Assembly: GCA_964016885.1 (NCBI GenBank)
Contig: OZ024741.1
Span: 383,656,001 to 383,720,000, forward strand
DNA from: Eledone cirrhosa
Taxonomy: Eukaryota
Direction: 5' to 3'
Length of the DNA stretch: 64,000 nt
Below the pieces are notes generated by a model that saw nothing but the letters and a program-made list of their open reading frames with translations, was not told the origin of the DNA and ran no database searches. Below, one piece after another: positions 31,478 through 48,550 of this stretch (position 1 is the stretch's first letter; each line of letters starts with the position of its first letter). Position numbers and translations under genes: made by a program.

Positions 31478-32645
31478 TGTCCGGCGACATGCCACCACAC
31501 TTTCGGGCCATATCTGGGACCTCCAAGATAATAATATAACTTAACATCTTACTTGGAGCTTACTGTCCAGAGCTAACACTTATACGGGAGGACGCCGTCC
31601 ATGTAACTTATGCTCGGAGGAAACATTACAACTCCTAAACAAAAAAGACAAACTGTTAACTGCATGCAAACACAAATTGCGGAAGTCTTACCTCGCCCTC
31701 AAACCCCCTAACGATCCGGGTGGGTAGACTAGGGCTGAAACACCCCACTTGCCGAATAAGATAGGGAAAACCCCTACTTATATAGGTAGATGTACCTCTT
31801 TTCTTTTCCTCTATGTTTTCTCTTTCCCTTTGTCTCCTCCTATCACTTTCCACCACCGAATTTCTTCCTCGTTCGTTTCTTCGTTTTTTTTTGTTTTTTT
31901 GTTTTTTTTCCCTTTCGCCTACCCTGAGGCAGCCCATTGGGCCTCTTTAGCCTCAGTACCCCCACCCCAGTAACTTACAGATAGCATTCGCCGATTTCGC
32001 TATACTAACTATCCATAGCAGCTGTGTTAGACCCCAGAGATGTGGTATTAATTTTTAATTCTAAATTTTCAATGATTCTCATCTAGCAACTCATTCTATA
32101 GAATTGACCGAAAAAGCAGCACCAACTAAATATAGCAACTGTGTTAGACTCCTTAATTGTTGTTTCATTTCTCACTTTCCAATCCTATATTCTGATACAT
32201 CTTTCTATCATTTTTTTAATTATATTCTCTTTTATTATATTTTTCATTGTCCCCTAATCGCTTTTGATTTATTATTTCTATAACGTCCCTCCTCCACTTT
32301 CTAAAGAAACCTTTTTTCGCCAACCTCCTCTGGCCTACTTTCATACACATTCCTTAGAATTTGCCGTGTAGATTTCACCTTCTACGCTTGACCGGCTCTA
32401 CCCACTCCCCTATCGTTCTACAGGCAAGTTCAGCCATCCCCACCCCGAACGCACTGCCATGATAGACTTTTCTGTGTCTGCTACAAATTTTGACCAATCC
32501 TCTTGACAACTACAATCTTCCCATATAAGGAAGTACCCCTTGAAAAGTTCGGCTATTTATTTACCAGACTAAAAAAATTCTTACTTTAGTCCAGAAATAG
32601 CCGTCGAAACGGCTTGAGCTTTGCCGTCGGGTCATACTTTCTCCT
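31478..32645 (+). mobile_element. PLE 3' fragment (GIY-YIG C-terminus + ~0.9 kb 3' region ending in an HHR)
   Basis: TTLSGHIWDLQ..LTWSLLSRANTYTGGRRPCNLCSEE..LLNKKDKLLTACKH parallels PLE-A TKLANHVWSLK..W..CGLCIEE..LN..CPH. Confidence 0.8.
32535..32632 (+). ncRNA. Hammerhead ribozyme with U3-A8 core, long stem II and full stem III
   Basis: ACCCC-UUGAAAA-GUUCGGCUAUUU...AAAUAGCCGUC-GAAA-CGGC-loop-GCCG-UC-GGGU. Confidence 0.8.
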
Positions 32646-33119
32646 ATATATATTCATATATATATATATATATGTGTGTGTGTGTGTATGTGTGTGTATG
32701 TGTGTATGCATGTGCGTGTGTGTGTGTGTGTGTGTGTGTGTGTGTGTGTGTGTGTGTGTGTGTGTGTGTGTGTGTGTATGTGTGTGTGTGTGTGTGTGTT
32801 TGAACAATAAAAAGAGAAGTCAGGTGTAGGTAGAATTTTCTGTTTTCTATTTCTATTCATCAAACACACATATATGTAAATGACTCTGTAACCCGGATTG
32901 ATTTTCTCCAAGGATAACTTAGGCTGCGACCACTTACCACAAGAACTACTGGTCAGACTGACGATTTTCGCCGCAACTATCCTTCCTAGGATACATTGAG
33001 TTCTAAAAATGTTATGAGCCCCACCACAACCAGTTGGCCTCCAAATATATATATATATATATATATATATATATATATATATATATATATATATATATAT
33101 ATATATATATATATATATG

Positions 33120-45615: not shown

Positions 45616-48456
45616 TATACCTTCCTGCCAGATTGTTGAACGTATATACTTACCTTATGCATATTAACGGCTGAGTAGCCCAATTTGCATATCGAGTGGG
45701 TTAATCGGCCGGGTGCACCGAAAACGGTAAACGGAAAAAATGAAACGAAATATCATTTCCCACTCTTAGTACATACTTATATATATATATGTATATATAT
45801 ATATATGTGTGTGTGTATATATATATGTATATATGTATGTGTGTATATATATATGTATATGTGTATATATATGTATAAGTGTATATATATATATATATAT
45901 ATATATGTGTGTGTGTGTGTGTGTGTGTGTATGTGTGTGTGTGTGTGTGTGTGTGTGTGTGTGTGTGTGTGTGTGTGTGTGTGTGTGTGTGTGTGTGTGT
46001 GTGTGTGTGTGTGTGTGTGACTGTATGTGTACATATGTAAGCATCAATGTTTGAAATATTCGTTATAAGATCTTGTGGTATATTCGAGGTAATGAGAAAT
46101 ATGTTTTTGAAGCAATTAGTTCTTTCGAGATGTGTCGAGTAAATATGTCAAGTAGAAAAACATCCATGTTCTTTATAGGATGAACCAAATATGTTTGACT
46201 GGATAGCAATGGGTGTAGTGAGTACGATGGAGGATTATCTCCCTGCCTTTTACTCTTTCCTTACCTCACACACTTTCCTCCACGCACACACGCACTCATA
46301 CATACACACACACACATACATACATACACACACACCCTTACATATATATATACACAAACACACACACACTTACATACATACACACATACATATATACATA
46401 CATACATATATACATAGGTAATTACAAGTACAATCCATTAATGGAACACTATAAATATGTAAAACATTCCAAAAAATGTGCATCTAATAACTGCATATAC
46501 ACATGTACAGATACTAAGCATGTGCACATACAATTCAAAACATCCACATCCACACATACAATAACATCCATAGCTACACTTGCATGCATGCAAACATACA
46601 GTACATACATAATCTAGCTAGTTGATGTTGTGTAAATTCCAATGAGAGAGTCTTGTGTCTATGTTAGAAACCGACTCTCTCTCTATTGGGAAATAATTTG
46701 TGAAATTATAAAACCAGGAGAATATACATACATGTAAACATGTATGTGTGTGTTTGAGTATGTACGTATGAGAGGTTGGATCTGTATGTATACATGTACG
46801 TACATATTTATGAAAGTATGTTTTTTATGTGTGAGCGCATGTGTGTATGTAAGTATGTGTATAGGTAGAGAACAATATATCTAGAAATATAGCCAAATAT
46901 AAACAGATGAAGATCCTCCCAAAACATATTTTGGGAGGATCTTCAGAATATTGCAACATACAAACAAAATCTGAATAACACTCGCACATATGTATATATA
47001 TTTACACAACATGCATATATAAATATTACAGTGACACAGAGAATTAGAAAAGGAAGCATTATAAACCAGAATATATATATTTATATACATATATATATAT
47101 ATATACATATATATATATATATATATATATATATATATATATATATATATATATATATATATATATATATATATAACAAAGGAATTGTGGTAAGGAACCA
47201 GATGGACCATAACGCACCAGAGTACTCAATACTTAGGGTAGTAGAGTGGGTAATAGGAAAATGTATGACACCCGACGGCTGAGCTCAATATATATATATA
47301 TATATATAAATATATATATATATATATATATATAGAGAGAGAGAGAGAGAGAGAGAGAGAGAGAGAGAGAGAGCGAGATGTGTGTGTTTGTGTGTGTATA
47401 CATTATATATATACATTATATATATATATATATAATGTTATATACATTATATATATATATATATAATGTATACACACAAACACACACACATGTTTGTGTG
47501 TGTATACATTATATATATATATATATATACATTATATATATATATATATGTGTGTGTGTGTGTGGGTGTCATTATCTGCCTGTGTTGTACAGGAAGAAAA
47601 CGGAAACGAGGGGAGTGTGAAACAGGCAAGGAGAAAAGAAAAGAAAATAAGATGATAGGTAACCGCGAGGTCAGTAGAAAAATTACAAATTCCTGTTTAA
47701 AGTGATATGCAATCGCCGAAATATATAGTTGTGCGGCTCTCAACATACTCACACGAATTGAAGTATACTAACATAAATTCCAGACTTGCTTTTATAATAT
47801 CAGGTTTACCTGAACTAATGGGACAACTGGAGTACACCGCCTACTACACTCCCACTAGAAATTCTCCACAAACGTCTACTGTGATCTTTAAGACGATTAT
47901 TTTAGCTGTGACATCCCTCTTTTAATATCTCGCTATAAGCAATACACTCATCCATCAACTATATATGTGTGTGTGTGCATACATATATATACATATGTAT
48001 GCACACACAAACAACACACACACACACACACATATATATATATATATATATATATATATATATATATATATAGTTATAGATATGTGTATGCGTGTTTACA
48101 CGATATATATGTGTACATATTCCAGTGACAGAAAGGTAAATAAATAAACCAGAATATATATATATATATATATATATATATATATATATATATATATATA
48201 TATATATATATATATATATATGAACCAGTAAGACCCCGACAGCTGAGCTCAAGCCGTTTCGACGGCTAATTCTGAGTCCAGAATTAGCCGTCGAAACGGC
48301 TTGAGCTCAGCTGTCGGGGTCTTACTGGTTCCTATTACCCACTCTACTACATCAAGTATTGAGTACTTTGGTGCGTTATGGTCCACCTGGTTCCTTACCA
48401 CACTTCCTCCGTTATATATATATATATATATATATATATATATAGGAACCAGTAAG

Positions 48457-48550
48457 ACCCCGACGGCTGAGCTCAAGCCGTTTCGACGGCTAATTCTGGA
48501 CTAAATGAAAATTTATCCTGGTATTTAAATAGCCGAACTTCTCAAGGGGT
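48457..48550 (-). ncRNA. Hammerhead ribozyme with U3-A8 core (best copy)
   Basis: ACCCC-UUGAGAA-GUUCGGCUAUU...AUUAGCCGUC-GAAA-CGGCU-UGAGCUC-AGCCG-UC-GGGGU; stems I and III are perfect. Confidence 0.85.

Follow-up and report, generated by a model that had tools for sequence, protein, structure and literature searches.

The hammerhead carried by a PLE family in Eledone cirrhosa keeps a conserved type I fold, while the pair between its core positions 3 and 8 has drifted. Judging from sequence comparisons, we favor on balance the reading that this ribozyme is slow or dispensable and that its 3′ half doubles as an internal promoter. The pair was mismatched for a long time while the element kept spreading, so cleavage by the hammerhead RNA is likely slow or not required. 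The U3-A8 core carried by both hammerheads in the window, the 64,000-nucleotide stretch of DNA analyzed here, is already known in nature and in PLEs; the drifting 3-8 pair and a candidate transcription start in loop II appear to be new in the literature searched. Signed positions are numbered relative to the cut site, with C17 as 0.

A Hydra-clade element and its copies in the window

By its sequence, the element is a Hydra-clade PLE with a type I hammerhead in the pseudo-LTR. Locus L086 carries a young intact element. It consists of a truncated arm in inverted orientation, one hammerhead at 3006, a tail of 80 nt, an ORF of 719 aa that starts at 3280, with 191 nt between the cut site and the start codon, a 3′ UTR of about 690 nt, and a second hammerhead at 6124 that ends in (TA)n. 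Its ORF contains DKT at 117, YRDD at 348, CxCx5C at 572 and YIGLT at 606. Craig et al. (2021, PMC8557442; this and most other papers cited here are compared for the portions consulted) describe Hydra-clade PLEs with DKT, a CxCx5C linker, a C-terminal GIY-YIG, (TA)n insertion and a hammerhead with a formed stem III, and they include the octopus family Hydra-1_Obim, whose protein resembles that of L086 when judged by eye. The DKG-to-DKT change, the linker, the C-terminal GIY-YIG, the insertion into (TA)n and the hammerhead are all found in our element. A Pfam search of the L086 ORF gave no hit, and a Nematis-like identity was replaced by the Hydra clade after the ORF motifs had been read. We also rejected a non-LTR retrozyme, because the copies with a core form the ends of an element that has an ORF, and the stubs lack the core. 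Tandem arrays of the element also occur, in which the unit measures about 3.54 kb. The surrounding genome measures 3.0 Gb and is rich in (TA)n.

Two hammerheads with UUGAAAA and UUGAGAA cores, GUC sites and three stems lie in the window where the earlier note had placed them, and they are 83% identical over 119 nt. Copy 1 comes from an older subfamily, F1, and copy 2 from the youngest, F2, in which many copies are 99% alike; copy 2 itself has near-identical copies elsewhere in the genome. Copy 1 does terminate a GIY-YIG fragment, as had been proposed: the endonuclease piece matches amino acids 629-717 of the intact L086 ORF at 78.7% (tblastn), and the 3′ UTR behind it shares 84-90% with the longest of 30 related loci. 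All six partial copies and tails that had been listed, at 19603, 42718, 44703, 47175, 48223 and 48667, were located, and the plus-strand stub of the pair nearest to copy 2 contains the first tail hairpin (48341-48364).

Table. Features of the PLE family in the window, with positions counted from its first nucleotide.
Feature	Coordinates	Strand	Details
Endonuclease C-terminal part (GIY-YIG) of a 5′-truncated Hydra-clade PLE, one in-frame stop	31479..31724	+	tblastn and translation
3′ UTR of that 5′-truncated PLE, subfamily F1	31725..32520	+	related loci
Hammerhead copy 1, subfamily F1	32521..32648	+	core UUGAAAA, U3 at 32540, cut after 32628; candidate transcription start 32588; ends at +20 into (TA)n
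Hammerhead copy 2 with short 3′ UTR stub, young subfamily F2	48442..48638	-	96-98% to L086; core UUGAGAA, U3 at 48545, GUC cut after 48462; candidate start 48502; ends at +20 into (TA)n
Inverted tail fragment (+38 to +100), part of the copy 2 insertion	48662..48730	+	
Head-to-head core-less stubs	48218..48415		-36 to +20 on -, -40 to +100 on +
Head-to-head core-less stubs	44703..44900		-42 to +20 on -, -35 to +100 on +
Core-less stub (-14 to +100)	47173..47288	-	
Tail-only stub (+40 to +100)	42716..42776	+	
Core-less stub, older O clade	19599..19713		-41 to +22 on -; inverted tail piece +47 to +98 on +

Copy 1 is decayed, with one G gone from stem I, and its minimum-energy fold is not a hammerhead, which takes a share of 0.09 of the ensemble compared to 0.38 for the F1 majority sequence. 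The minimum-energy fold of copy 2 is a hammerhead, but no better than those of shuffled sequences (z -0.35), and the F2 majority sequence likewise folds as one. Stem II begins with one G-C pair, followed by a 2x1 loop and 6-9 further pairs. Of 292 Rfam matches, the 150 that were listed included no hammerhead family, and searches with CUGANGA miss these hammerheads, as the earlier note had stated.

Fold conservation and the state of the 3-8 pair

The family has the bases that define a type I core: U4 G5 A6, A9, G12 A13 A14, the A15.1-U16.1 pair and H17. Over 27 copies, 94% of stem I, 90% of stem II and 95% of stem III is paired, and three stem II pairs carry two-sided changes between clades. 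The extra hairpin that had been described within loop II is present in the window copies but only loosely kept in the family (79% paired, with one column pair showing a two-sided change, in one sequence), and we dropped it as a candidate conserved module on this weak support. With 5-6 bp and a 7-9 nt loop, stem III sets these hammerheads apart from the minimal type, in which it is absent or 1-2 bp long, and the description of the ribozyme as non-minimal therefore stands. The further description of stem III as fully monomeric is less secure: loop III keeps the palindrome GAGCUC, with a predicted self-duplex of -23 to -31 kcal/mol, so that a route to dimers may persist. The hammerhead, whose ensemble share ranges from 0.003 to 0.62 (0.003 in subfamily W, 0.02 in subfamily CA3), often loses to an alternative hairpin in which GAAA is buried. 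When a stem I-loop II tertiary contact was sought by eye across subfamilies, no conserved complementarity was evident.

Exact-pattern searches of the genome returned 5,985 matches for U3-A8 (against 7 for its reversed control, so well above chance), 2,048 for C3·A8, 64 for U3·G8 and 25 for C3-G8; the reversed controls of all four core patterns gave 1-7, and the patterns differ slightly in one flank position. U3-A8 makes up 74% of the core matches, and in all the genome holds about 8,000 copies with a core. A pattern in which the core alone was freed, and not stem II, matched 6,068 times. A hand tally of the first 100 of these gave U at position 3 in 73, C in 26 and G in 1; U4, A6, A8 and A9 were present in all 100, G5 in 99 and G10.1 in 96, so that only positions 3 and 7 vary much. 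By contig depth in sequencing run X1, position 3 is C in 24%. The majority state is U3·G8 in the older subfamily W (G8 in 24 of 30), and the diverged clade O combines a U3-A8 majority with C3-G8 (about 5) and U3·G8 (about 7) in the first 100 of its 255 matches. The pair has thus been amplified in four states (C-G, U·G, U-A and C·A), and the alignment of 27 hand-picked rows has 3-8 unpaired in eight. Two sequencing runs from other organisms, X5 and X6, contained only 3-4 low-depth contigs, several of them at least 99% alike, and are therefore uninformative on other species.

These counts contradict the claim that U3-A8 arose here as a compensatory covariation. Both window copies have a Watson-Crick U-A pair, but A8 is fixed in the family while position 3 is either U or C, and a U·G subfamily exists as well. 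The proposed covariation check, when run, revealed no covariation across the family, and C3·A8 proved to lie on the lineage that connects the window's two copies. Nor is U3-A8 a form that had gone unrecognized, as it is already published, including in PLE hammerheads. That only N7 varies is true of the two window copies and fails for the family, in which positions 3 and 8 vary too. The alternative that the copies are independent decay products of a CUGANGA consensus does not apply, since F1 and F2 are both U3-A8 throughout. We also considered the C3-G8 matches as sister families that would prove covariation and rejected this, because 10 of 20 fetched are members of the family, and nine of those ten sit inside C3·A8 subfamilies, where they likely represent A8G decay. 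It appears, then, that a U3-A8 core is no proof of rescue, and by itself it is no evidence of compensation or activity.

To order these states, subfamilies were set by hand-picked flank motifs from 202 distinct copies, and a tree was built from 53 copies over 320 nt of 3′ UTR, with zero hammerhead columns, and rooted on W. The root was chosen for the characters that W has in common with clade O and for its greater divergence (median 0.066 compared to 0.029-0.046 for seven main-clade subfamilies, although the F1b median of 0.076 exceeds it and the samples are partly biased). The resulting ladder runs W > F1 > F1b > CA1 > CA2 > CA3 > F2pre > F2/F3, in which CA1, CA2 and CA3 are three successive C3·A8 subfamilies. 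The window copies therefore share U3-A8 and yet are separated by a long C·A stage, and the main-lineage order of the pair, as read from the tree, is U-A, then C·A, then U-A again. A single U3-A8 clade is rejected by the 3′ UTR tree (p-AU 1.6e-5). The C·A stage covers 0.39-0.59 of 1.09 changes per site, or 36-54% of the path. The return from C to U is placed inside F2pre (476 matches, with about 37 C and about 60 U in the first 100), where 11 of 12 C copies fall outside, and basal to, the starred U clade. Recombination as the source of the ladder appears unsupported, since the flanks on both sides of the hammerhead follow CA3, in agreement with the tree from the 3′ UTR.

Along the ladder, the 3′ UTR accumulated 0.98 changes per site and positions 3, 7 and 8 changed two, two and one times, while the stems and other core bases changed zero times, a count that is partly circular because six of the sampling patterns fixed TGA, AG and stem II. 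G7 arises on the same branch as C3 and is retained through CA1-CA3. The ancestral state was likely C-G, because the published Hydra-clade hammerheads are C3-G8 in 26 of 26 rows of File S2 (PMC8557442). Those hammerheads have short loops II and stems III of 3-4 bp, so a formed stem III is not special to the window copies.

Insertion ends and a candidate start in loop II

Among 358 pieces that reach past +5, 268 stop at +20/+22 or at +100, and these ends lie 5 and 3 nt, respectively, before two similar bulged hairpins. Both 3′ ends are beyond the cut, which means that the copied RNA was either uncut or re-joined. At the other side, the pieces rarely extend to the core. A random sample of 600 kb, made up of 60 separate 10-kb stretches at round-numbered positions of contigs 1-10, held 26 pieces, 24 without the core and two with it; 16 of the 26 start between -45 and -32, and one starts at +1. 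Scaled from this sample, the genome would contain roughly 130,000 pieces, and stubs outnumber core-bearing copies by about 12 to 1. When all loci are pooled, 71 of the 90 distinct pieces that lack the core have their start in the interval from -45 to -32, with a mode at -40; for this fraction, starts 3′ of -25 were excluded by the anchor, and similarity was the basis on which some of the loci were fetched.

Several features distinguish position -40. It is the A of an initiator-like TTAGTY/TCAGTY motif in loop II in both clades, and conservation begins abruptly there, with one change in 17 sites compared to 25 in the 27 sites just upstream. Pieces that end at -40 are preceded by an extra G in 9 of 14 cases, compared to 16 of 75 other ends (p 0.002), and the difference persists when element-derived junctions are removed (6 of 8 compared to 8 of 30, p 0.019). 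An extra 5′ G of this kind may represent a copied cap residue. Counted from the candidate start at -40, CGAAA occupies +18, and in Drosophila the Inr consensus is TCAKTY and the MTE starts with CSARC at +18 (PMC1538597). The agreement is 5-6 of 6 for the Inr, 4 of 5 for the start of the MTE and poor for the DPE, measured against a consensus that comes from flies, and Inr-like motifs are short. From these patterns, -40 is likely an internal transcription start. It is not the sole 5′ limit, since about half of the ORF-start loci (15 of 30, by hand count) run upstream past -40 through a whole upstream pseudo-LTR. Contig depth climbs about 20-fold between 3036 and 3070 of L086, in a smeared fashion from which no count was taken.

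Other ends are less regular. Of 28 that fall between -24 and +17, six are at 0 to +2, where two are expected (p 0.013), a hint that some templates were cut; three of these six show G/C-run microhomology by eye, and two come from C·A subfamilies. Many stub junctions are inverted pairs with microhomology, and at two loci (L256 and L258) copying jumps to a new template at -41/-37.

Readings of the pair and of the stubs

In the reading that we favor, RNA polymerase II would start in loop II at -40, and reverse transcriptase would begin just before one of the two tail hairpins and copy back through the uncut site. The short RNAs made in this way would lack the enzyme half, would be unable to self-cleave, and would give rise to the very abundant stubs. 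Rapid cutting by the 3′ hammerhead would strip both start hairpins from the RNA; weak cleavage, or a cut that is later re-joined to form a circle, may therefore be tolerated or even favored. U3-A8 would then be the state that the pair occupies most often, aided by an A+T-rich background. Two observations run against this reading: the conservation of U4, G5, A6, A9 and G12-A15 suggests that catalysis may still matter, and every non-Watson-Crick state was eventually replaced by U-A.

The same drift could reflect an active ribozyme that tolerates any pyrimidine-purine pair at 3-8, such as wobble U·G or protonated C·A, or that shifts to a C3-G7 register at the C·A stage, with cut and re-joined circles templating the tandems. 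Its appeal is that all other core bases are conserved, that only such pairs were amplified, and that G7 appears with C3 and stays through CA1-CA3; the small excess of ends at 0 to +2, with its two C·A members, and the tandem arrays point the same way. PLE hammerheads commonly carry an additional base between 9 and 10.1, and peripheral elements can alter core tolerance (review, PMC2920678). We nevertheless regard this possibility as rather unlikely. In the consulted portion of a complete hammerhead double-mutant scan, the 3-8 pair was rescued only by the G:C swap and every other mutant, whether single or double, was poorly active; most stubs continue across the cut site as far as -40, the hammerhead is a minor state in W and CA3, and tandems also arise by read-through. 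We find it improbable that U3-A8 is instead a compensatory, fully active monomeric subtype and that the mismatch subfamilies are crippled passengers, because the C·A subfamilies form the trunk to the youngest family over much of its path. The wait for the return to U matches that of a neutral site by our own estimate, and A+T bias alone would favor U and A. This is so even though U3-A8 is the most frequent core and was reached at least twice, natural U3-A8 hammerheads are reported to be active in vitro (PMC3088659), and both copy 2 and the F2 majority fold as hammerheads.

The cluster at -40 also has a more ordinary candidate cause, a stall of reverse transcriptase at the loop II hairpin that would make the stubs simple truncations. 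In the main clade -40 does lie in the 3′ strand of the inner hairpin, and the many inverted junctions with microhomology are compatible with such events. Clade O, however, uses the same position although it is unpaired in the predicted fold, and the onset of conservation at -40, the extra G and the template jumps at L256 and L258 also speak against a stall. We regard this cause as rather unlikely.

Published systems share parts of this arrangement. Natural covariation from C3-G8 to U3-A8 is known in several hammerheads (Perreault et al. 2011, PMC3088659), and the consulted portion of that paper reports no amplified C3·A8 mismatch lineage among the variants. In Schistosoma mansoni, about 1,300 hits of the Cercyon PLEs have the U3-A8 core (Cervera and De la Pena 2014, PMC4209133), and these PLEs resemble our element in their type I hammerhead in the pseudo-LTR, long stem II and palindromic stem III region; the metazoan forms tested had low activity in vitro. 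Unlike the minimal Cercyon hammerhead, ours has the stem III and loop III described above and a loop II of about 35 nt with an inner hairpin, and it has amplified C3·A8 and U3·G8 lineages, neither of which is reported in the part of the Cercyon text consulted. Compared to published Hydra-clade elements, ours has a longer 3′ UTR and a larger hammerhead; large stems III are published in fungal and protist PLEs.

The closest parallel for the insertion ends is the lizard PLE PAc, an Anolis Poseidon element in which two internal reverse-transcription starts flank an optional tail, the main template is uncut RNA, no RNA ends at the cut site, and dead hammerheads insert equally well (Frangieh et al. 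2024, PMC11167929). Our element likewise has insertion ends past the cut and two putative starts around a tail. PAc differs in its C3-G8 pair, its short tail (typically 30-40 nt) and an ORF that overlaps the hammerhead, in contrast to the 80-nt tail and the distant start codon here. Penelope of D. virilis has an internal TATA-less promoter with Inr and DPE in its terminal repeat (Schostak et al. 2008, PMC2377424), with a start upstream of an intron whose end is at the hammerhead, unlike the putative start here, which would lie inside loop II and split the 5′ hammerhead. The literature compared, which also spans PMC2920678, PMC6765202, PMC3846280 and bioRxiv 2026.07.22.740005, contained, in the portions searched, no amplified C3·A8 lineage and no mention of transcription that starts within the loop of a PLE hammerhead; further mutational studies and the supplements of PMC4209133 and PMC3088659 may hold C3·A8 or U3·G8 forms or rates.

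The family amounts to a dated natural mutagenesis series on one scaffold, with C-G, U·G, U-A and C·A versions whose genomic success is already counted and which can be compared side by side. The role of PLE hammerheads, an open question in the field, thereby becomes testable. If transcription starts in loop II, the promoter would explain part of the conservation that is usually credited to catalysis, and it would also explain the excess of stubs over core-bearing copies.

A bolder model, which we hold to be doubtful, is that the pair walked through all four pyrimidine-purine states in one lineage and that the hammerhead, split by its own promoter, has left roughly 100,000 substrate-half stubs. 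The enzyme half would be confined to the 3′ end of full transcripts and could pair with the 5′ end of its own RNA, or in trans with stub RNAs, so as to circularize or silence the element. The predicted binding is -10 to -15 kcal/mol, and for this pairing the hammerhead is the best predicted fold in 5 of 11 subfamilies.

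A second Hydra-like element and other hammerhead-like motifs

Besides the main Hydra-clade Penelope-like element (PLE), the window holds a distant second Hydra-like PLE, with 35-38% identity to the open reading frame (ORF) of L086, a young intact copy of the main element. About 330 nt beyond the ORF of this second element lies a minimal hammerhead with a canonical CUGAUGA core, which provides a C3-G8 comparator within the same window. A loose scan returned three more small hammerhead-like motifs, two with CUGAAGA cores and one with UUGAAAA, with a stem II of 4-5 bp. There are two further PLE pieces: a rearranged element from a different clade, with a YVDD motif, and a third Hydra-like fragment that is broken and old.

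Features of the window and of related genomic loci
Feature	Position	Strand	Remarks
Tandem LINEs (two)	window 6254-17294	-	ORF1, endonuclease and reverse-transcriptase frames
Minimal hammerhead	window about 22045-22075	-	
Second Hydra-like PLE	window 22408-24328	-	
YVDD PLE	window 40238-42162		two GIY-YIG pieces on -, reverse-transcriptase piece on +
Hammerhead-like motifs	window 42438-42480, 60011-60063, 60480-60517	+	
Bulged hairpin	window 48341-48364		
Inverted repeat	window 51872-52030		related sequence near 53290-53590
Third Hydra-like PLE	window 56463-57741	-	
Twin bulged hairpins	L086:3115-3138, L086:3193-3214		5 and 3 nt, respectively, behind the two insertion ends of the main element
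304-aa frame	L048:1948 onward		

Hairpins and tandem units of the main element

Bulged hairpins of the main element occur both as twins in L086 and in the window. Elsewhere, four full units stand in tandem at a spacing of about 3.54 kb (L261-L264 and other runs), and at locus L253 the repeated units each span -43 to about +211, counted from the hammerhead cut site.

Features outside the PLEs

The inverted repeat is near-perfect, with a (TA)n core at its centre, and Rfam miRNA matches in this region fell under threshold. At locus L048, an intronless 304-aa frame adjoins a copy of F2, the youngest subfamily of the main element; it looks like a retrocopy of a gene, which we take to be of the threonine dehydrogenase type.
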